A stretch of 64,000 nt of DNA, taken from contig CAVVFK010000001.1 in NCBI GenBank assembly GCA_963747435.1, positions 76,674 through 140,673 of the forward strand, given 5' to 3'. Positions 3,821-53,051 of the stretch are shown piece after piece. This stretch comes from an uncultured Actinomycetota bacterium. GTDB lineage: Bacteria; Actinomycetota; Actinomycetes; Propionibacteriales; Nocardioidaceae. The translations under genes were made by a program, and so were the position numbers. Under the pieces are notes generated by a model. That model was given only the letters and a program-made list of their open reading frames with translations, did no database searches and had not been told where the DNA came from. Each line of letters begins with the position of its first letter. Position 1 is the first letter of the stretch.

Positions 3821-3824
<4 letters not shown>

Positions 3825-4975
3825 CGCGGGGCTCCGTAGCCCAGCAGCTTGGCCGCGAGGTCGTCGAGCACCTCGTTGGCGCCGCCGCCGATGCCGAGGA
3901 TCCGCGCGTCGCGGTAGTGCATCTCCACCTCTGTGCCTCTCATGTAGCCGGTGCCGCCGTGCAGCTGGACCGCCTGGTCGGTGCAGTACGACGCCGCGTC
4001 GACGCCGAGCTTCTTCGCGTGCAGCGCCTCGACCAGCGGCTGCTCGCCGGCGTCGTAGCGCCGTGCCACCTCGCGGGTGTAGACCCGGGCGGCCTCGACC
4101 CGGCGGTGCATCTCGACGAGCCTGTGCCGCACCGCCTGCCGGTTGATCAGCGGCTCGCCGAAGGTCCGCCGCTCCGCGGTGTATGCCGCGGTGAGCGCCA
4201 GGCACCGGGCTGCGGTGCTGTAGCCCTGCACGGCGAGCGAGACCCGCTCGGTGACGAACGCGGTCGCGATCTGGGCGAAGCCGCTGCCCTCGACGCCCAC
4301 CAAGTTCGCAGCGGGCACGCGGGCGTCGACGAAGGCCAGCTCAGCGGTGTCCGAGCAGTGCCAGCCGAGCTTGTCGAGCTTGCGGGTGACCTCGAACCCG
4401 GGCGTCGAGGTCTCCACGACCAGCAGGCTCACGCCCTGGTGGCCGGGGCCGCCGGTGCGCACCGCGGTGGTGACGAAGTCAGCGCGGACGCCCGAGGTGA
4501 TGAAGGTCTTCGCACCGTTGACGAGGTAGTCGTTGCCGTCACGAGCCGCCCTCGTGCGGATGCCGGCGACGTCGGAGCCGCCGTCGGGCTCGGTGATCGC
4601 CAGCGAGCCGATCGTCTCACCGGCCAGCGTGGTCCGCACGAAGCGGTCGATCAGGTCGGTGTTGCCGGAGGCCACGATGTGGGGCAGCGCGATGCCGTGG
4701 GTCATCAGGCTCGCCATCAGACCGCCCGAGGCACCGGCTTCCATCATCGCCTCGGTCATGGCCACGGAGTCGGTGAGCCCTCCGCCCTGGCCGCCGACGT
4801 CCTCGGGGAAGGAGATCCCGAGCAGGCCCTGCTTGGCGGCCGCCAGGTGCAGCTCGCGCGGCAGCTCCTGGTCGGACTCCCACTGCGAGAGGTGCGGCAG
4901 CACCTCTCGCTCGACGAAGCCTCGCGCACTCTCGCGCAGCGCCTCCTGCTCGGGCGTCCACCAGCTCCTGGACAT
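3821..4975 (-). CDS. Acyl-CoA dehydrogenase
   Basis: ATG at 4975 (MSRSWWTPEQEALRES...). The 384-aa translation shows ACAD hallmarks (LAITEPDGGSDV, GAKTFITSG, QLHGGTGYMRGTEVEMHYRDARILGIGGGANEV). The 1066-aa track ORF is an over-extension. Confidence 0.9.
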
Positions 4976-6903
4976 CAGAGCAGCTCCTCCGGCACCTCGA
5001 CGACTCGCGAGCGCGCCCACTCCCCGAGCCCCTTGGCCTGCGGGTCGAACCGCGCGCCCTCGGCCACACCTCGGCCCAGCAGGCCTTCGATGACGACGTT
5101 GACCGCACGCAGGTTCGGCAGCGGGTGCACCTGCACCTCGTGGGTCTCGGCCTCCGGCAGCAGGGCTCGCACCCAGTCCGGCGAGACCACCGAGCTGAGC
5201 CAGGCGTAGCGCTGCTCGGCGCGCGGGTCGCGGGCCGAGACCCACAGCCCGAGGTTGGCGTCCCCGCCCTTGTCCCCCGACCGCGCGTGCACCAGCTCTC
5301 CCAACACCACCCTCACCACACCCCCAGAGCCGGAGCGGTCGAGCACCCGCTCCTCGCCATCCCGGGGTGAGGCTCCCTCCGGGCCCGGGGGCTCGGAAGC
5401 ACCCGCCGCGTCCGTCGTGGGGGTGGGCCCCGGAGGCGACGGTGCCGCCGCGGCCGTGGATGGGCCTGGCCCCCCCGGAGCGACGAAGGAGCGAAGGGGG
5501 TGGTTGGCCGCGGCGGCATCGGCGCCGAGGGGGTCCACCCCCACGGCGGGCGCGGTCCTCTTGCCCGAGTCGTCGAGCGTCACCACGGGCGGAGGAATCG
5601 TCACGACCGTCCCGTCGGGCAGATGCACCAGGTGCTCGACCTCGTCCTGGGCGACGTACGCCGCCCGATAGATCCCGTACGGCGTCGCCGGCATCGGTGG
5701 CGTGGTCGCGGTGAACCCCGGGTACGACGCGAGCGCGAGCTCGATCAGCGGGCCGGTGAACCGCTTGCCGGCGACCTCGCCCGAGGGGTCGCGCACCACC
5801 AGTCGGAGCCGGGCGCTCGCGGCCTCCTGCGAGGTGGCGTCGGGGTGGTCGGTGCGGGCCAGCGACCACTCCATCTCGGCGGGCCGACGCGACCCGAGGG
5901 CGGCCTCGACCTGGGCGCGCACCCACGCGGCTTTGGCGTCGAGGTCGAGCCCGGTCAGCACCAGCTCCATCTGGTTGCGGTGGCCGCCGAGCTCGTTGAC
6001 GCAGACCTTGAGGCTCGGCGGTGGCGCCTCCCCGCGCACGCCGCTGATGCGGACCCGGTCGGGCCCGTCGTCGCTGAGCTCGATCGTGTCGAGGAGCGCG
6101 GTGACGTCGGGGCCGAGGTAACGGCTGCTCTGCACCTCGTAGACGAGCTGAGCGGTGACGGTGTCGAGGTTGACCAGCCCGCCGGTGCCGGGGTGCTTGG
6201 TGATGACGCAGGAGCCGTCGGCGGCGATCTCGGCCAGCGGGAAGCCGAGAGGCCGGTCGGCGACGCCGGCCTCCAGCAGCTCGCGGAAGCCGCTGTAGTT
6301 GCCCCCCGTGGCCTGGGCGCCGCACTCGATGACGTGGCCGGCGACGACTGCCCCGGCGAGGGCGTCGTGGTCCTCGCGGCCCCAGCCGAAGTGCCAGATC
6401 GCCGGTCCGAGGACCACCGAGGCGTCGGTGACCCGGCCGGTGACCACGATGTCGGCGCCGGCTCGCAGCGCCTCGGCGATGCCGAAGGCGCCGAGGTAGG
6501 CGTTCGCCGTCAGCGCCGCTTCGCCGAGGCCGAGCTCGCCGGCTCGCGGCATCAGGTTGTCGCCGTCGACGTGCGCGACCGTGGCGTCGATGCCCTGGTC
6601 GGCGGCGATCTTGCGCAGCTCGTCGGCCAGTCCGGCGGGGTTGAGCCCGCCGGCGTTGCTGACGATGCGGACGCCACGCTCGACCGCGAGCGCCAGACAG
6701 TCGCCGACCTGGCGCAGGAAGGTGCGGGCGTAGCCCAGTGAGGGGTCCCTGAGCTGGTCCTTGCCCAGGATCAGCATGGTCAGCTCGGCGAGATAGTCCC
6801 CGGTGAGCACGTCGAGGTCGCCGCCCTCGAGCATCTCGCGCATCGCGGAGAGCCGGTCGCCGTAGAAGCCGGAGCAGTTGCCGACCCGCAGGGGCGGGGT
6901 CAT
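4975..6903 (-). CDS. AtuA-like (DUF1446, acyclic terpene utilisation family) protein with an embedded repeat-derived linker
   Basis: ATG at 6903 (MTPPLRVGNCSGFYGDRLSAMREML...), in an ATGA overlap with the upstream stop. A C-terminal module (HARSGDKGGDANLGLWV) follows a Pro/Gly/Ala-rich insert. The stop TGA overlaps the ACAD ATG (TGATG). Confidence 0.8.
   Translation of the reverse strand: MTPPLRVGNCSGFYGDRLSAMREMLEGGDLDVLTGDYLAELTMLILGKDQLRDPSLGYARTFLRQVGDCLALAVERGVRIVSNAGGLNPAGLADELRKIAADQGIDATVAHVDGDNLMPRAGELGLGEAALTANAYLGAFGIAEALRAGADIVVTGRVTDASVVLGPAIWHFGWGREDHDALAGAVVAGHVIECGAQATGGNYSGFRELLEAGVADRPLGFPLAEIAADGSCVITKHPGTGGLVNLDTVTAQLVYEVQSSRYLGPDVTALLDTIELSDDGPDRVRISGVRGEAPPPSLKVCVNELGGHRNQMELVLTGLDLDAKAAWVRAQVEAALGSRRPAEMEWSLARTDHPDATSQEAASARLRLVVRDPSGEVAGKRFTGPLIELALASYPGFTATTPPMPATPYGIYRAAYVAQDEVEHLVHLPDGTVVTIPPPVVTLDDSGKRTAPAVGVDPLGADAAAANHPLRSFVAPGGPGPSTAAAAPSPPGPTPTTDAAGASEPPGPEGASPRDGEERVLDRSGSGGVVRVVLGELVHARSGDKGGDANLGLWVSARDPRAEQRYAWLSSVVSPDWVRALLPEAETHEVQVHPLPNLRAVNVVIEGLLGRGVAEGARFDPQAKGLGEWARSRVVEVPEELL
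5412..5549 (-). repeat. Family-1 long hairpin element, copy B, inside the AtuA-like coding sequence
   Basis: Perfect 12-bp stem GCCGCCGCGGCC (5444-5455) / GGCCGCGGCGGC (5506-5517) encloses the core GTGGATGGGCCTGGCCCCCCCGGAGCGACGAAGGAGCGAAGGGGGTGGTT (5456-5505). The outer arm 5412-5429 pairs with 5532-5549, and the two differences are both wobble-compatible. Confidence 0.8.
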
Positions 6904-7706
6904 GAGGCGCTCCGCGGGTCTCGTCCGGAGCCCGACGGGCCCGCGAAGGCCTGCGCGATGTCGAGCCAGTGGTCGGCCTGCTCGCCCTCGGCGTGCACGT
7001 CGAGGTCCTCGCGGTGGCCACGCTGGGTGACCAGCAGGGCGAAGTCCCAGGCGGAGCCGGTGACGCGCTGCTCGGAGTCGTGCGGCCCGTAGGTCCAGGT
7101 CGCTCCCGACGGCGAGACCAGCTCGACCCGGAACTGCGCGTCGGGCTTCTCGTCCCCGGCGTTGACGTGGGCGAAGTCGCGGGTGCGGACCCCGAGGTGG
7201 ACCACGTGGCGGACCCGGTCGTGCGGCTCGACGGGGATCCCGAGCGCGGCGGCGATGTCGAGCCCGTGGGCCCAGGTCTCCATGTAGCGCGCGGTCGCCA
7301 TCGAGGTGGGGGTCATCGGTGGACCGAACCAGGGCATCCGGTTCTCGCCGGGGAGCTCGGTGAGCACCCGCGCCAGCTCCTGTCGCGAGGTGCGCCACCG
7401 GGCCAGCAGCTCGCGGCTCGGCGATCGGCCCAGCGCCAGCGCCTCTGCGTCGACGAAGCCCTCGGGGTCCTCCAGCGCGGTGAGGACCAGCTCGTCCCAC
7501 GCGGCCTTGCCGTCCTCGGTGTCTGCCCGGGCCGCGAGCACCGCGCACTCGTCGGTCCACACCAGGTGGGCCACCGTCGTGGCGATGTCCCAGCCCTCGG
7601 CGGGGGTGTCCTGGCGCCACCGCTCGTCGGAGAGGTCGGCGAGGAGCCCGTCGAGCCAGTCGCCCTCGTGGGCGAGGTCGGGGAGGACCTGGAGGATCTT
7701 GGTCAC
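6900..7706 (-). CDS. DinB/mycothiol-dependent maleylpyruvate isomerase-like metal-binding protein (TIGR03084-like)
   Basis: GTG at 7706 (VTKILQVLPDLAHEGDWLDGLL...WDIATTVAHLVWTDE), 268 aa. A GTGA overlap links it to the TetR stop. The family assignment is from memory of the motif pattern, not from a search. Confidence 0.65.
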   Translation of the reverse strand: MTKILQVLPDLAHEGDWLDGLLADLSDERWRQDTPAEGWDIATTVAHLVWTDECAVLAARADTEDGKAAWDELVLTALEDPEGFVDAEALALGRSPSRELLARWRTSRQELARVLTELPGENRMPWFGPPMTPTSMATARYMETWAHGLDIAAALGIPVEPHDRVRHVVHLGVRTRDFAHVNAGDEKPDAQFRVELVSPSGATWTYGPHDSEQRVTGSAWDFALLVTQRGHREDLDVHAEGEQADHWLDIAQAFAGPSGSGRDPRSAS

Positions 7707-8326
7707 GCGATGCGTCCCTTCGGCTGGGCGAGCTGGGCGTCGAGGGCGGCGGCCCAGCGGTCGAGGATCCGGGTACGCCGCGCGGCGTCGTCGGTCAGCG
7801 TGTTGGCCAGGCCCAGGCCGCGCACCAGGTCGAGGGTGGCCTGCACGAGCTCGCGGTTGCCCGGCACCGACTCGTCGATGCCCAGCGCCTCCACGGTGCG
7901 CCGGTGGGCGTCCCGGCCGAGCTTGGCCTCCAGCTCCACGACGGCCTCGCGCAGCGTCGGGTCGGTGCGGGCCGCCACCCACAGCTCGAGTGCCGCGCTG
8001 AAGGTGGGGCCGGTGAACAGCTCGGCGAGCTGCTCGAGCACCACGCGGGTGCGCCTCGGCGTGCCGAGCGCCGCGCCGTCGGCCTCGTTGCTGACCAGGT
8101 CGGCGCGCAGGCTGGTGAGGTGGTCGACCGCGGCGAGGACGAGGTCGCTCTTGGTGGGGAAGTGGTGCAGCTGCGCGCCGCGGCTGACACCGGCCCGCTG
8201 GGAGACCACGGTGGTGGAGGTGCCGGTCCAGCCGTGCTCGACCAGGCAGGCGACGGTGGCCTCCATCAGCCGCGCCCGGGTTGCGCGGCTGCGCTCGCCC
8301 TGGGGCACCCGTTCGACCGCGACCAC
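7703..8326 (-). CDS. TetR family transcriptional regulator (first gene of the Atu-like operon)
   Basis: 207-aa ORF with an N-terminal helix-turn-helix: RARLMEATVACLVEHGWTGTSTTVVSQRAGVSRGAQLHHFPTKSDL. Confidence 0.85.
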   Translation of the reverse strand: MVAVERVPQGERSRATRARLMEATVACLVEHGWTGTSTTVVSQRAGVSRGAQLHHFPTKSDLVLAAVDHLTSLRADLVSNEADGAALGTPRRTRVVLEQLAELFTGPTFSAALELWVAARTDPTLREAVVELEAKLGRDAHRRTVEALGIDESVPGNRELVQATLDLVRGLGLANTLTDDAARRTRILDRWAAALDAQLAQPKGRIA

Positions 8327-15973: not shown

Positions 15974-16000
15974 GCTCGCTCCTCGGTGGGGGGTCGGGTC

Positions 16001-16094
16001 GGCAGTTTCCCAAGGTATGTAGGCGAACTGCCACTTCCCACGGGTTGCAACCCGTGGGAAGTGGCAGGTGAGCAACAGACCTTGGGAAACTGCC
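16001..16094. repeat. Nested perfect palindrome (16-bp outer stem, 19-bp inner stem) between the phosphatase and SDR genes
   Basis: The outer stem is GGCAGTTTCCCAAGGT (16001-16016) / ACCTTGGGAAACTGCC (16079-16094). The inner stem is CTGCCACTTCCCACGGGTT (16028-16046), a GC loop, then AACCCGTGGGAAGTGGCAG (16049-16067). Confidence 0.85.
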
Positions 16095-16104
16095 CGCCGA
16101 ACGC

Positions 16105-16755
16105 CTACCGATAGGTGAGGGTACGGCGGTCCAGGTGCGGGTGCTCGTTGACCGAGACCAAGGTGAGGCCGCGGCGTCCGGTGACGACCTTGGTGACGCC
16201 GGTGTTGACCAGGACCGGGTTGACGCAGGCCCACTGGGCGACCCCGCCGGACCACAGGCTCGCCACCACCCAGGCGATTGCTCCCCCGCTGGTGAAGACC
16301 ACCCCGGTCTCGCCGCCGCCCAGCGAGTCGGCCGCCTCGAGCACGGCGCCGCTCACCCGCTCGGTGAACGCGGTGAAGGACTCGGTGTAGTCGCTGTCGT
16401 GGCCGCCGCCGTTCCACCGGGCCACGGCGGCGTCGAAGAAGGCGTTGTAGGCCTCGGGCTTGTCGGCCTGCGGGGTCACCTCGTCGTAGCGGCGCAGCAG
16501 CTCGACGTGGTCGAACTCGCTCCAGCGCCGGTCGGTGGTCACCGGCGCCGACCAGCCGGCCGCACCGCACGCCGCCGTCACGGTCTCGTCGTGGCGCCGC
16601 AGCCCCCCCGTCCACACCCGCGCCGGAGCGACCCCGCGCGCGGCGAGGTCCTTCCCGAGGTGACCGGACTGCTCGTGGCCCAGCTCGGAGAGCACGTCGT
16701 AGTCCTGCGCACCCCACGACGCCTGGCCGTGGCGCACCAGCAGCAGGACGCTCAC
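16105..16755 (-). CDS. Histidine phosphatase (phosphoglycerate mutase-like) family protein
   Basis: GTG at 16755 (VSVLLLVRHGQASWG, the RHG catalytic motif). A GTGA overlap links it to the upstream kinase stop. Confidence 0.8.
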   Translation of the reverse strand: MSVLLLVRHGQASWGAQDYDVLSELGHEQSGHLGKDLAARGVAPARVWTGGLRRHDETVTAACGAAGWSAPVTTDRRWSEFDHVELLRRYDEVTPQADKPEAYNAFFDAAVARWNGGGHDSDYTESFTAFTERVSGAVLEAADSLGGGETGVVFTSGGAIAWVVASLWSGGVAQWACVNPVLVNTGVTKVVTGRRGLTLVSVNEHPHLDRRTLTYR

Positions 16756-27046: not shown

Positions 27047-28216
27047 TCAGCCCTGGACCGCGGCTCCGGACTCCAGCAGCTCCCCGACCCCAGAGACGCC
27101 CCAGGCCTCGAGCACGGCGCGCGTCCCCCCGCCGGCGACGGACGGCCCGGAGGTGAGGGTGGCCTCGGTGCGGGAGAAGCGCGGCGCCGGCGCGGGCTGG
27201 AGCAGACCATCCTGCTCCAGGTACACCCCGCGGGCGGCCATGTGCGGATGCCGGGCGGCCTCGGTCATCGGCAGGATCGGCGCCACGCAGGCGTCGGTGC
27301 CGTCGAACACCTCGGCCCACTCGGCCTGAGTCCGGGTCGCGAAGGTCTCGGTCAGCACCGCGCGCAGCTCACCGAGCTGGGCGAAGTCGTGGCGGTCAGG
27401 CACCTGCTCCTCCAGGCCCATCAACCGGATCATCTCGGCGTAGAACTGCGGCTCCAGCGCCCCGACGCTCATGTGCTTGCCGTCGGAGGTCTCATAGATG
27501 TCGTAGTAGGGGATGCCGCCGTCGAGCAGGTTGGCGGCGCGCTGCTCCTGGGCGAAGCCGCTGGCCAGGATCGCCGCCCACATCATGTTCAGGTGCGCCG
27601 CGCCGTCGACGATCGCGGCGTCGACCACCTGGCCGGTGCCGGAGACCCGCGCCTCGAGCAGGGCGGCGAGCACGCCGATCACCAGGTACGTCGAGCCGCC
27701 GCCGAAGTCTCCGACGAGGTTGCTGGGGAAGTGCGGGCGTCCGGGGTCCTGGCCCAGCCCGTGCAGCACGCCCGCGATGCCGATGTAGTTCATGTCGTGA
27801 CCGGCGGTGTGGGCCAGCGGCCCGTCCTGGCCCCACCCCGTCATCCGGCCGTAGACCAGGGCCGGGTTCAGCGCCAGGCAGTCCTCGGGTCCGATCCCGA
27901 GCCGCTCGGTCACCCCGGGCCGCATCCCCTCGACGAGGACGTCGGCGGTGGCGATCAGCTCCTTGAGCGCCCGCAGCGCGTCGGGGTTCTTCAGGTCCAT
28001 CGCGACGCTGGGACGCCCGCGGGTCAGCAGGTCGGTCTCCCGGGGGCCCGCGCTCGCCGCACCGCCCGGCTTCTCGACCCGGATCACGTCGGCCCCGAGG
28101 TCAGCCAGCAGCGTGGCAGCGTGCGGACCGGGCCCGATCCCAGCGATCTCCACCACCTTGACGCCCCGAAGCGGCCCAGTCCCCTGTGCCAGCGCGTAGC
28201 CGGTGTCATCAGCCAT
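27047..28216 (-). CDS. mcr: Alpha-methylacyl-CoA racemase (family III CoA-transferase fold)
   Basis: ATG at 28216. GPLRGVKVVEIAGIGPGPHAATLLADLGADVIRVEKP closely recalls the N-terminus of mycobacterial MCR. Confidence 0.75.
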   Translation of the reverse strand: MADDTGYALAQGTGPLRGVKVVEIAGIGPGPHAATLLADLGADVIRVEKPGGAASAGPRETDLLTRGRPSVAMDLKNPDALRALKELIATADVLVEGMRPGVTERLGIGPEDCLALNPALVYGRMTGWGQDGPLAHTAGHDMNYIGIAGVLHGLGQDPGRPHFPSNLVGDFGGGSTYLVIGVLAALLEARVSGTGQVVDAAIVDGAAHLNMMWAAILASGFAQEQRAANLLDGGIPYYDIYETSDGKHMSVGALEPQFYAEMIRLMGLEEQVPDRHDFAQLGELRAVLTETFATRTQAEWAEVFDGTDACVAPILPMTEAARHPHMAARGVYLEQDGLLQPAPAPRFSRTEATLTSGPSVAGGGTRAVLEAWGVSGVGELLESGAAVQG

Positions 28217-28222
28217 GCGGCG

Positions 28223-28246
28223 GATTCTGACAGCAGAACTGTCACG
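28223..28246. promoter_or_regulatory. Candidate operator GATTcTGACAgcagaACTGTCACG upstream of mcr
   Basis: Lies 7-30 nt upstream of the mcr ATG. It has the same half-sites (TGACA-N7-TGTCA) and the same flanks as the site at 26897-26920. Confidence 0.5.
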
Positions 28247-28438
28247 TTCGCCAGGCTGGGTGTTCGTGGAGGGGCCTGAGCTGGGGTGCACGGCTACCGG
28301 GCCATCCGGCGAACGGCGAGGCGCGCTGTCGCCGTGTCGCCCGGGACTCGCGCTGTGGGCGGCCCGGGCAACGAGGCGCCCACGCCTCCTTGACGCTGCG
28401 CCCCACCGCCCTCCGGCTGACCCGCCACCCGCGCGTTG

Positions 28439-28588
28439 GCGGTGGGCCGCGGTCCGGCCAGGGTGGGGTGTCGGCGGGCGTGGATGGGACTGGCCTCCGT
28501 GGAGCAGGGCGCAGCGACGAAGGAGCAGCGCCCTGCGTAACGGGTGGTTGCCCGCCGACGCCGTGGCCTGGGCGGGGCGTGGTCCGCC
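28439..28588 (-). repeat. Family-1 long hairpin element, copy C (intergenic)
   Basis: Perfect 10-bp stem GTCGGCGGGC (28470-28479) / GCCCGCCGAC (28550-28559). The core is GTGGATGGGACTGGCCTCC..GGAGC[AGGGCGC]AGCGACGAAGGAGCA[GCGCCCT]G..GGGTGGTT, with an extra 8-bp apical stem. Confidence 0.75.
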
Positions 28589-28623
28589 GTCAACCCCTTA
28601 CCGAGGCCAACCACGACCCTCCC

Positions 28624-29354
28624 TCAGAGTACGCGCCGCAGGAACTGGCGGGTGCGCTCCTCGTGCGGGTCACCGAGCACCTGCGAGGCAGGCCCCTCCT
28701 CCAGCACCCGACCGTCGTGGAGGAAGCAGACCTTGCGTCGCGACGTCGCGCGCGAACCCGATCTCGTGGGTCGCCAGCACCATCGTGGTGCTCCCCTGTG
28801 CCAGTGAGCGCAGGATGTCGAGCACCTCCCCCACCAGCTCGGGGTCGAGCGCCGCAGTGACCTCGTCGAGCAGCAACAGCTCGGGCCCGGTCGCCATGGC
28901 TCGGGCGATCGCGACCCGCTGCTGCTGCCCGCCGGAGAGCCGGTCGGGGTGCAGCGAGCCCATGCCGCTCAGGCCGAACCGCTCCAGCAAGCTCCTCGGC
29001 CTGCCGGACGGCCTCGCGCCTGCCCAGGCCGTGCGCCTTGAGCGGGGCCAGCACGAGATTGTCGAGCACGCTCATGTGGGGGAAGAGGTTGTAGGCCTGG
29101 AAGACCACCCCCATCCGACGCCGTACGGCGCGGGCGTCGAGCCGCGGGTCGGTCAGCTCCAGCCCGTCGAGGACGATGGTGCCGTCGTCGGTCGGCTCCA
29201 GCAGGTCCAGGCAGCGCAGCAGGGTGGACTTGCCGCTGCCGGAGGCCCCGATCAGGCACACCACGTCGCCGCGCTCGACCCGCAGGTCGAGGTCGTCGAG
29301 CACGACCTTCTCGCCGTAGGTCTTCCGCAGGCCGGTGACCTCGAGGAAGCTCAT
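28624..29354 (-). pseudogene. Polar amino acid ABC transporter ATPase (GlnQ-like) broken by two frameshifts
   Basis: Frame 1 reads MSFLEVTGLRKTYG...GASGSGKSTLLRC...AEEL, with a shift near 28988-28993. Frame 2 reads LLERFGLSGMGSLHPDRLSGGQQQRVAIARA...LLLDEVTAALDPE...ATHEIGFARDVA, with a shift near 28737-28742. Frame 3 reads RKVCFLHDGRVLEEGPASQVLGDPHEERTRQFLRRVL, with the stop at 28624. Confidence 0.75.
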
Positions 29355-52067: not shown

Positions 52068-53051
52068 ATGAACATCAGCCGGGCGCTGCAGATGGCCGCG
52101 GTGGGCGCGATGGTCGCCATCGTCACCGGTGTTGGCGCCACCCCGGCGATGGCAGCCCCCCAGGACCACGGCTCCTCGGCATCCCAGGTGCGCGGCAAGT
52201 CCGGCTCGGACCCCGACGGCGACCACAACGGCGGCGCCGACAAGCCCGGCAGCTCCGAGAAGCCCGGCGCCACCACCCGCGACGGCAACAACGGCAGCGG
52301 CAACGACGCCGACTGCGAGGACGACAACAACGGTCGCGGCACCCCCGGCCACTGCGGCTCGAGCAAGCCCGCCAAGCCCGCCGCGCAGCCGAGGCCGGAG
52401 AGGCCCGCGGTCCCGACCAAGCCGAGCAAGCCGGCCCAGCCGAACGAGCCCGCCGCTGGGACCGGCGGCCAGGGCGACGACAGGGGCCGCTCCGGCTCGG
52501 ACCCCGACGGCGGCCAGAACGGCGGCGCCGACAAGCCCGGCACCTCCGAGAAGCCGGGGAGCTCCGAGAAGCCGGGGAGCTCCGAGAAGCCCGGCGCCAC
52601 CACCCACGACGGCAACAACGGCAGCGGCAACGACGCCGACTGCGAGGACGACAACAACGGTCGCGGCACCCCCGGCCACTGCGGCTCGAGCAAGCCCGCC
52701 AAGCCCGGCACGCCGCAGACGCCCGGCGAGGAGGAGCGCCCGGTCTCGGTGAGCGACCCGCGCTGGCCCTCGGAGCCCGGTCGACCCTCCGCTCCGGAGG
52801 TGCTCGGCACCGAGCAGACCGCCCCGACGAGCACGACCGGGCGCTCGCCGCACCACGCGGGGCACCACAAGGACGCGAAGCAGGCCGAGGTGCTGGGGGT
52901 GAGCGCGAACCGCAGCGGGGTGATGGCCGCAGCGACCGGCGTCCTCCCCGAGACCGGGGCAGGACAGGCACTGCTCGCCACGGCGGTCCTCGGCGGACTC
53001 TGCTCCGCCGCAGGGCTGCTGCTGATCAGGATCCGAAGGGCAACGGCCTGA
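52068..53051 (+). CDS. LPXTG cell-wall-anchored repeat protein
   Basis: ATG at 52068 after AAGGGAGAG. The signal peptide is MNISRALQMAAVGAMVAIVTGVGATPAMA. Two ~60-70-aa repeats are followed by LPETG, a hydrophobic segment and an RIRRATA tail. Confidence 0.85.
   Translation: MNISRALQMAAVGAMVAIVTGVGATPAMAAPQDHGSSASQVRGKSGSDPDGDHNGGADKPGSSEKPGATTRDGNNGSGNDADCEDDNNGRGTPGHCGSSKPAKPAAQPRPERPAVPTKPSKPAQPNEPAAGTGGQGDDRGRSGSDPDGGQNGGADKPGTSEKPGSSEKPGSSEKPGATTHDGNNGSGNDADCEDDNNGRGTPGHCGSSKPAKPGTPQTPGEEERPVSVSDPRWPSEPGRPSAPEVLGTEQTAPTSTTGRSPHHAGHHKDAKQAEVLGVSANRSGVMAAATGVLPETGAGQALLATAVLGGLCSAAGLLLIRIRRATA
52200..52706 (+). repeat. Internal coding duplication (52200-52379 and 52491-52706) with an 18-nt tandem unit
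   Basis: A 99-nt stretch is identical at 52281-52379 and 52608-52706. The unit GAGAAGCC(G/C)GG(G/C)(A/G)(G/C)C(T/A)CC (EKPGSS) occurs three times in tandem at ~52548-52601. Confidence 0.85.

Follow-up and report, generated by a model that had tools for sequence, protein, structure and literature searches.

Palindromic repeats that sit in frame within housekeeping genes are familiar from textbooks as a peculiarity of Rickettsia. Rickettsia palindromic elements (RPEs) are dispersed palindromic repeats of ~100-150 bp that form long hairpins, lie both in intergenic regions and in frame within unrelated housekeeping genes and, when located in genes, extend the protein by a peptide segment that its fold can accommodate (PMC10969869). 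REPINs and REP sequences are non-autonomous hairpin repeats of ~100 nt that are mobilised by RAYT transposases, reach multiple copies, are mostly inherited vertically and persist for long periods (PMC3116915; bioRxiv 10.1101/2021.07.10.451892); among the REPIN/RAYT papers listed for this analysis, none uses the word Actinobacteria. Bacterial MITEs, such as Correia/NEMIS, ERIC and the cyanobacterial Nezha, are short, non-autonomous elements with inverted repeats, some of which have produced in-frame gene fusions (PMC10969869).

Here, we investigate a 64,000-nt stretch of DNA from an uncultured Nocardioidaceae bacterium (the window, to which all coordinates refer), for which an original prediction made from the sequence had proposed that the same hairpin element occurs at two sites, one of them within an AtuA-like gene. 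We consider it probable (roughly 70%) that the genic copy, termed copy B, is a member of an undescribed, Nocardioidaceae-specific family of REPIN/RPE-like palindromic repeats that survives in genes only within disordered linkers.

The hairpin in the AtuA gene and its relatives in the window

Copy B forms a hairpin at 5406-5555, slightly wider than the limits of 5412-5549 originally claimed; its two 50-nt arms, which are 84% complementary and 50 nt apart, enclose a 50-nt core. The features of the window are as follows:

5406-5455, + strand: 5' arm of copy B, as on the core strand, with the GGA side of an internal loop ~20 bp outward from the core
5456-5505, + strand: conserved core of copy B, with the shoulder GTGGATGGGCCTGG; read as NHPLRSFVAPGGPGPST in AtuA
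5470-5476 and 5496-5500, + strand: inner stem of copy B, a C-run pairing with a G-run
5477-5495, + strand: apical loop of copy B, GGAGCGACGAAGGAGCGAA
5506-5555, + strand: 3' arm of copy B, which contributes GAG to the internal loop
4975-6903, minus strand: AtuA-family gene hosting copy B, 642 aa (from the ORF, Pfam and homologs)
5329-5556, minus strand: stretch encoding residues 450-525, the disordered tether between the two domains (from AlphaFold2 pLDDT and unalignable homologs)
2040-2167, + strand: copy A, intergenic; arms 2040-2078 and 2129-2167, core 2079-2128, weaker pairing out to ~2020-2190
28435-28595, + strand: copy C, in the intergenic region flanked by genes for an ABC ATPase (28590-29354, minus) and a CoA-transferase III (27047-28291, minus)

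Folded as RNA on the mRNA strand, copy B reaches -120.1 kcal/mol (z -5.2 relative to shuffled sequence), and its DNA fold on the + strand has a z-score of -6.4 relative to shuffled sequence. Its pairing can be extended to ~195 nt, which leaves the outer limits fuzzy, so that the earlier argument from a paired segment of 138 nt, a multiple of three, carries no weight. An intrinsic (rho-independent) terminator was considered and rejected, since no terminator-like site was called at either hairpin and the arms lack a following T run. The window has no match in Rfam at the gathering threshold, and over copy B a permissive threshold yielded hits at chance level only (E 1.9-9). None of the public sequencing runs contains the window sequence, the best one sharing 6% of words.

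The host gene is assigned to the AtuA family on the basis of an N-terminal AtuA body (PF07287; residues 5-428, E 4e-153), a C-terminal AtuA_ferredoxin domain (PF23544; residues 534-629) and an atu/liu-type carboxylase cluster, and its homologs are 57-81% identical. As anticipated, the reading frame survives the element: the minus-strand frame of ORF 4975-6903 is open across copy B, with the translation GVDPLGADAAAANHPLRSFVAPGGPGPSTAAAAPSPPGPTP, and both Pfam domains are detected in one single translation. Copy B occupies residues 450-500, in frame and outside both domains, in agreement with the proposed position between them. A structure prediction, suggested at the time as a check of linker disorder, bears out this expectation, with AlphaFold2 pLDDT values below 50 over residues 450-525 and confident models for both flanking domains. 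Homologs cannot be aligned across this tether, whose length varies, and those without the element have shorter and unrelated linkers.

The second site holds as well: the core recurs in copy A with 84% identity over 69 nt, at zero chance matches in shuffles. Copy A has its own 39-nt arms and is non-coding, as originally stated, filling the atuC-atuF spacer, which runs from the stop codon of the carboxyltransferase gene (2208) to the start of the biotin-carboxylase gene (~1990); the element itself is a repeated nucleic-acid element rather than a gene. Copies A and B lie in one operon and in the same orientation. Copy C, the third copy in the window, had been overlooked. Its core is a variant (28480-28560) that retains the shoulders and apical loop of copy B (AGCGACGAAGGAGC at 28513-28526), with the inner stem swapped for the longer CAGGGCGC/GCGCCCTG. 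GC skew is flat over the window.

Distribution, structure and genic copies of the family

Members of the family were sought with sequence patterns and with nhmmer. The core patterns identified 18 genome loci and 44 metagenome loci, 8 of the latter forming an unrelated group. The family core is present in 50 or more loci from Nocardioidaceae genomes and metagenomes, all family matches come from Nocardioidaceae or Actinomycetota, and the plasmid and phage collections contain no match. Copies are often found at contig ends, with six of the 21 family matches on whole contigs lying no more than 50 nt from the end, compared with ~0.3 expected. Copy numbers are low (one or two strict-pattern copies per genome), and in a Red Sea Nocardioides population at least 12 distinct flanks surround near-identical cores and proximal arms. 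The genes adjoining family copies are unrelated housekeeping genes, judging from the families displayed; neither a transposase nor a RAYT-like gene was present among the 25 of 129 Pfam families displayed for 63 ORFs neighbouring copies. The searches also yielded no target-site duplication and no autonomous parent element or parent insertion sequence for the family.

Each copy is a long hairpin of ~110-195 nt, whose apical ~50 nt are nearly invariant and comprise a shoulder, a C-run/G-run inner stem and a GGAGCGACGAAGGAGCG loop. The stems vary between subfamilies, which differ by 2 nt in arm register in the MAFFT alignment, yet stay complementary. Thus, 95.9% of cells are paired, and 93 cells show double changes, as opposed to 36.5 in shuffles, a value reached in none of 500 shuffles; when partners are slid by 1-3 columns, pairing falls to 50-62%. 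One inner-stem pair, for instance, is T:A in 21 copies and C:G in 12. About half of the copies folded contain a purine 3x3 internal loop ~20 bp outside the core, mostly GGA opposite GGA, GAG or GCA. The hairpins are also asymmetric between strands, with 69 G:T versus 26 A:C oppositions in the arms, and the core strand is favoured by 23 elements, the other strand by 6.

The cores of AtuA copies are 86-98% identical across genomes and 90-94% identical to the window copy, compared with 58-65% identity at four-fold degenerate sites of the same genes; same-locus arms are 74-89% identical in the group comprising the window, L005, L018 and L001. The high core identity could mean selection in place, as opposed to neutral selfish DNA; the same would be seen, however, if copies underwent gene conversion with one another. 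Likeness also extends across host genes: the core of the L015 copy in FbiC is identical to that of the L018 copy in AtuA, and the arms of the two are 84% identical, which appears to reflect recent copying from one gene to another. Among copies with identical cores and proximal arms, the distal stems differ, which a simple copy-and-paste of a fixed unit fails to explain.

In-frame copies are found in the AtuA genes of the window, L001, L002, L005, L018 and the isolate L066, in the CofG-CofH linker of FbiC (L013, L015) and in the tau linker of DnaX (L007, L036, L052), which strengthens the resemblance to RPEs noted in the original prediction. In AtuA and DnaX, the element is read as NHPLRS.VAPG.P.PST and the genes carry the complement of the favoured strand, whereas FbiC carries the favoured strand itself and reads it as VDG.GPPGAT.ER.GWL; the AtuA linker of L064 contains a degenerate copy in the opposite orientation. 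The occurrence of in-frame copies in both orientations indicates that the nucleotide sequence is conserved, and not the peptide. A concatenated six-frame peptide query for further host proteins returned nothing at E <= 10, and a two-sequence peptide profile searched against 1.8 billion representatives, a size at which 17-residue matches are underpowered, retrieved only an unrelated tandem-repeat protein.

Empty sites are observed among close relatives. L063 lacks both copy A and copy B, and its carboxyltransferase and biotin-carboxylase genes are 3 nt apart; in L066, copy B is present and copy A absent, and the same two genes overlap by 4 nt. These sites, together with the linkers of element-free homologs, uphold the part of the original prediction that viewed the segment as an insertion. 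A single clean insertion is doubtful, since presence and absence on the AtuA tree fit several gains as well as one gain followed by losses. Owing to the fast evolution of the linker, clean boundaries do not emerge from the alignment of filled and empty sites, nor does that comparison show a direct duplication. Family copies are kept at the same loci across genera.

Origin of the family and competing interpretations

By analogy, the family appears to be the actinobacterial counterpart of the Rickettsia palindromic elements. It shares with them a dispersed palindrome of ~100-150 bp, the long hairpin and in-frame copies in the unrelated proteins AtuA, FbiC and DnaX at fold-compatible positions. 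It differs in residing in another phylum (Actinomycetota, ~72% G+C), so that the likeness is one of behaviour and no sequence relationship is expected; moreover, its few host genes so far all carry it in long disordered interdomain linkers, its conservation lies in invariant loops and covarying stems, and different hosts read it on either strand. In comparison with REPINs, the arms and spacer are both conserved within the Red Sea population, and a fold specific to one strand would suit an enzyme that acts on single strands (HUH-type). REPINs, by contrast, lie outside genes, and what stays conserved in them is the REP arm that bears the recognition motif, whereas here the arms change between lineages and the central 50 nt stay constant. 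In contrast to MITEs, the element varies at its outer ends from copy to copy, and no conserved terminal inverted repeats, target-site duplication or parent insertion sequence were found for it. The single-strand origins (sso) of rolling-circle plasmids and primosome hairpins are imperfect hairpins of ~150-200 nt that act in one orientation as single-stranded DNA and combine conserved loops with little conservation of stem sequence. The conservation pattern of the element would resemble that of sso elements as generally described; these are single-copy plasmid signals, though, whereas the element is chromosomal, multiple, partly genic and without a plasmid or phage match.

We infer mobility from distribution only. 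The family has probably multiplied within genomes through a trans-acting mechanism. Since one strand, the + strand of the window, forms the better hairpin, this mechanism probably reads a folded single strand. Vertical inheritance would then have passed the copies on, with an occasional copying or conversion event from one locus to another, and those in genes would persist only if the frame was kept and the segment had no structural role. In the present case, the permissive segment would be the disordered tether joining the AtuA body to the ferredoxin-like C-terminal domain. The ribosome would read through the element, adding ~50 Pro/Gly/Ala-rich residues (450-500) to a tether of variable length, and the AtuA enzyme would be expected to be unaffected.

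It is tempting to ask whether the hairpin instead benefits its host as a structured RNA or ssDNA signal that is under purifying selection even in coding sequence, its multiplicity reflecting recruitment rather than selfish spread. It might, for example, bind a cellular factor through its loops, affect mRNA processing or stability, pause ribosomes between domains or serve in ssDNA priming or restart. The nearly invariant loops on covarying stems, the high same-locus core identity relative to four-fold sites, the G:T versus A:C asymmetry, the shared operon and orientation of copies A and B and the retention of loci across genera are all consistent with such a role. We nevertheless regard it as unlikely, given that both orientations relative to transcription occur (AtuA and DnaX versus FbiC), that host genes and neighbours are unrelated, that close relatives manage without either copy (L063) or without copy A (L066), and that there is no Rfam family match; in addition, the breaks in assemblies and the near-identical paralogs suggest a repeat that multiplies, and the core likeness is also maintainable by gene conversion. 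Similarly tentative is the notion of a strand-specific structured signal, selected even as coding sequence, that is recognised by an actinobacterial factor; candidates would be an HUH enzyme, RAYT-like or otherwise, or a protein of the host that binds RNA or ssDNA.

Two further interpretations place the conserved unit elsewhere, and both are far less credible. That AtuA and DnaX share one reading frame, and that the peptide is better conserved than the remaining linker in the P0003 clade, would fit a short functional linker motif, NHPLRSFVAPGGPGPST, of which the DNA repeat is a by-product; this idea, the least probable of all, is contradicted by the non-coding copies A and C and by FbiC and the L064 AtuA gene, where translation of the opposite strand yields another peptide with the nucleotides still conserved, and it sits poorly with stem covariation at the nucleotide level and the very low model confidence of the disordered segment. 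It is also highly improbable that the element marks a gene boundary, be it the scar of a two-gene fusion, as originally offered as an alternative, or a spacer between two genes disguised by an undetected stop or frameshift. In L065, whose AtuA N-terminal domain is 86% identical, the frame is indeed broken just before the element and resumes beyond it, so that gene callers predict an N-terminal product of 456 aa and, as a separate fragment, 56 aa of the C-terminus, and the C7 run in the core is likely a site prone to length errors or slippage, with an extra C in L010 shifting the FbiC frame. A neighbouring gene of L065 is truncated as well (133 versus ~265 aa), suggesting assembly errors, and the frames of L009, L010 and L065 were left out of the evidence, since other genes in these assemblies are broken too. 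The frame is intact over both domains in the window and also in the isolate L066 and many independent assemblies, and both domains occur in one protein in all but one of the 120 homologs listed, with or without the element; the exception, P0053, is a broken gene in an assembly with further broken genes. The fusion scar is therefore rejected: the fusion is independent of the element and probably predates it.

Implications for Nocardioidaceae genomes

The presence of in-frame repeats in free-living, high-G+C Actinomycetota indicates that this behaviour is not peculiar to reduced intracellular genomes. In practical terms, the family breaks metagenome assemblies, and its C6-C8 run can cause real or artefactual frameshifts in essential genes, both of which annotators of Nocardioidaceae genomes should know. 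The copies in the long disordered tethers of AtuA, FbiC and DnaX provide a natural experiment on where proteins tolerate insertions. A structure that is read by a protein would be expected to have loops that stay invariant, stems that covary and one preferred strand; these traits of the family point to a mobilising or binding factor. If the element acts as a signal, the linkers of AtuA, FbiC and DnaX would be dual-use sequences, and no REPIN-like replicator system would have been described in Actinomycetota before this family.

A hairpin repeat in the AtuA tether

Open reading frames and Pfam matches delineate a minus-strand cluster of atu/liu type in the window:

7703-8326, minus strand, TetR regulator
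6900-7700, minus strand, MDMPI-family protein
4975-6903, minus strand, AtuA
3821-4975, minus strand, acyl-CoA dehydrogenase
2208 to about 3800, minus strand, carboxyltransferase
starting near 1990, minus strand, biotin carboxylase

Within atuA, repeat finding identified an inverted repeat (copy B) whose 50-nt arms (5406-5455 and 5506-5555) are 84% complementary and enclose a 50-nt centre. The hairpin originally predicted at 5412-5549 is thereby confirmed, with slightly wider limits, and because these outer limits are soft, the argument that its length is a multiple of three has no force. The fold far outperforms shuffled sequence, with z -5.2 for RNA of the mRNA strand (-120.1 kcal/mol) and z -6.4 for + strand DNA. 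As predicted, the AtuA frame is continuous across the element, reading ...GADAAAANHPLRSFVAPGGPGPSTAAAAPSPPGP..., and the hairpin encodes residues 450-500, between the Pfam domains AtuA (residues 5-428) and AtuA_ferredoxin (534-629). An AlphaFold2 model with 24 homologs as input shows both domains with confidence and assigns residues 450-525 a pLDDT below 50, consistent with a disordered form of the interdomain linker that the original prediction had envisaged; copy B thus falls wholly within this tether. It is probably translated as part of it, with a neutral effect on AtuA.

The tether is unalignable among the 24 homologs, whose total lengths vary between 573 and 649 aa. Some carry the linker peptide NHPLRS(F/S)VAPGGP(G/V)PST or a degenerate form of it, and several have short linkers with nothing comparable. 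In two homologs (P0096 and P0066), the linker corresponds to the opposite-strand reading, VDG.GP..AT.ER.GW., and P0092 has a further degraded form of it; the AtuA linker of locus L064 likewise holds a degenerate copy in this second orientation. Two opposite-orientation copies share one AtuA linker in P0066 and in locus L009 (5560-5609 and 5721-5770, 112 nt apart). The arms of the reversed L009 copy resemble those of the L002 forward copy (74%), so the core may be inverted through recombination of the arms that flank it. The tether of P0025 contains a different tandem repeat (four LETTR and two SLAPQPPA units), indicating that this linker is generally permissive to repeat expansion.

Anatomy and covariation of the element

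The centre of copy B recurs at 2079-2128 (copy A), flanked by its own 39-nt arms, which are unrelated to those of copy B. A profile search revealed a third copy (copy C, about 28435-28595), absent from the original prediction, between genes for an ABC ATPase and a CoA-transferase III; its whole inner stem is swapped for a different, longer one (CAGGGCGC/GCGCCCTG), with the shoulders and the apical loop kept. The window also contains a 116-nt palindrome of unrelated sequence (15990-16105; two 58-nt arms without spacer, 81% complementarity), relatively A+T-rich for the genome, and tandem direct repeats at 52200-52723 (units of 68-163 nt, 94% identical, with an 18-nt sub-repeat) with the appearance of repetitive coding sequence.

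In a set of 35 distinct copies, the core is near-invariant (GTGGATGGG.CTGG, C-run, GGAGCGACG(A/G)AGGAGCG.A, G-run, TGG(T/A)T), and the arms vary in sequence with their pairing retained. The C-run comprises 5 to 8 C, depending on the copy. Standard pairs occupy 95.9% of cells in the consensus structure, and both sides have changed at 11 of its 19 pairs; one inner-stem pair alternates between T:A (21 copies) and C:G (12 copies). Double-change cells number 93, versus 36.5 in shuffles, none of 500 shuffles reaching the observed value, and pairing falls to 50-62% when the partners are offset by 1-3 columns. About half of the folded copies have a purine 3x3 internal loop, mostly GGA opposite GGA, GAG or GCA, some 16-27 bp away from the core, followed by a further stem of 11-27 bp that brings total pairing to 50-63 bp. 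Distal stems vary between otherwise identical copies. In an intergenic copy of locus L012 (6620-6800), the distal stem takes in the last codons and TGA stop of the upstream gene, with an inverted counterpart beyond the element; this outer palindrome may have been copied from the end of the gene or may supply it.

Arm oppositions on the core strand comprise 69 G:T and 26 A:C, with 23 elements favouring this strand and 6 the other. As the copies are not independent, this pattern is only suggestive of a fold with importance for just one strand. The favoured strand in the window is the + strand, antisense to all neighbouring genes.

Distribution, host genes and turnover

A strict 27-nt core pattern matched 18 loci in species-representative genomes, all from Nocardioides, Marmoricola, Nocardioidaceae or unclassified Actinomycetota MAGs. 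A 22-nt pattern yielded 44 metagenome loci, eight of which (L028, L031, L037, L041, L050, L051, L055 and L058) form an unrelated group with only a loop-like 25-mer in common. These come from soil or rhizosphere samples and define a second conserved region, non-coding and about 150 nt long (e.g. L037 5530-5760), that shares only CCCCCGGAGCGACG(A/G)AGGAGCGACC with the element; it is rich in GAGCGA-type motifs (gcgagcgccagcgagc, cgagcgacgagggaagg) and has neither a flanking hairpin nor an Rfam match. One Red Sea Nocardioides population contains near-identical cores and proximal arms in at least 12 different flanks, and also tandem and partial duplicates. Tandem copies 138 nt apart or partial duplications of the core 5' half beside a full copy occur in L027 (11495-11545 and 11633-11683), L021 (4057-4139) and L005 (about 4680-4760). 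Among family hits on whole contigs, 6 of 21 are no more than 50 nt from a contig end, a signature of repeats that break assemblies. The neighbours are ordinary housekeeping genes, with no transposase among the gene families listed, and the element has no match in Rfam or in plasmid and phage collections.

Spanning-frame translation and Pfam identified further host genes. In L013 and L015, the element occupies the linker that connects the two radical-SAM halves, CofG and CofH, of FbiC, and in L007, L036 and L052 the Pro/Ala-rich tau linker after domain III of DnaX. AtuA and DnaX are coded opposite to the core strand, where the element reads NHPLRS..., and FbiC is coded on it, reading VDG.GPPGAT.ER.GWL; use of both orientations, with different peptides, indicates that the nucleotide sequence rather than the peptide is conserved. 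Each orientation has so far been observed in one frame only; a filter favouring peptides that are flexible and uncharged may be the reason, although the independent events are few. In L010 (779-829), an additional C in the linker copy puts FbiC out of frame, and in L065 (3800-4260) and L009 the AtuA frame is interrupted close to the element; these breaks may be assembly errors in long-read MAGs or real slippage.

Both atu sites are empty in L063, as judged from its short AtuA linker and an atuC-atuF gap of only 3 nt. In the isolate N. marmoribigeumensis (L066), the AtuA copy is intact and in frame, with a 4-nt atuC/atuF overlap, so copies A and B represent separate events; the copy A position is common to L005 and L008. 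A tree built from the domains alone places the forward AtuA copy in three clades, each with sisters that lack it, a pattern compatible with a single old gain followed by losses or with multiple gains. At the AtuA locus of the group formed by the window, L005, L018 and L001, arms are 74-89% and cores 90-98% identical, and four-fold degenerate sites of the same genes only 58-65%. Different loci of one genome have cores that are 82-100% alike and arms that mostly are not. Either selection in place or conversion between copies can produce this excess conservation. Recent copying or conversion between genes is implied by the L015 copy in FbiC and the L018 copy in AtuA, whose cores are identical and whose arms agree at 84%.

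Nature of the element

We consider it likely (probability about 0.7) that the element represents a palindromic repeat family of Nocardioidaceae, REPIN/RPE-like and hitherto undescribed. The family would be mobile, with a putative single-strand basis; neither a mobilising enzyme nor a target duplication or parent element came to light. A structured signal that benefits the host draws support from the conservation pattern but is unlikely, given the mixed orientation of the copies, their unrelated contexts and relatives without them. A gene boundary or historical fusion, the alternative raised originally, is very improbable: homologs without the element are two-domain proteins too, and frames are intact in independent assemblies, leaving as its sole support the broken AtuA frame of L065, whose assembly has other broken genes. 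Slightly less probable still is a conserved peptide motif, because non-coding and opposite-strand copies exist.

Rickettsia palindromic elements with in-frame insertions have been described in a review that mentions no actinobacterial case (PMC10969869). The element works like them, as initially suggested, and resembles REPINs (PMC3116915); since the likeness to RPEs is one of behaviour and no RAYT-like gene was found near the copies, we assign it to neither family. A MITE was rejected, as conserved termini and target duplication are lacking, and so was a terminator, no such site being predicted at either hairpin. What sets this repeat family apart is that loops stay constant as stems covary, that one strand is apparently preferred and that copies inside genes are confined to long tethers between domains.
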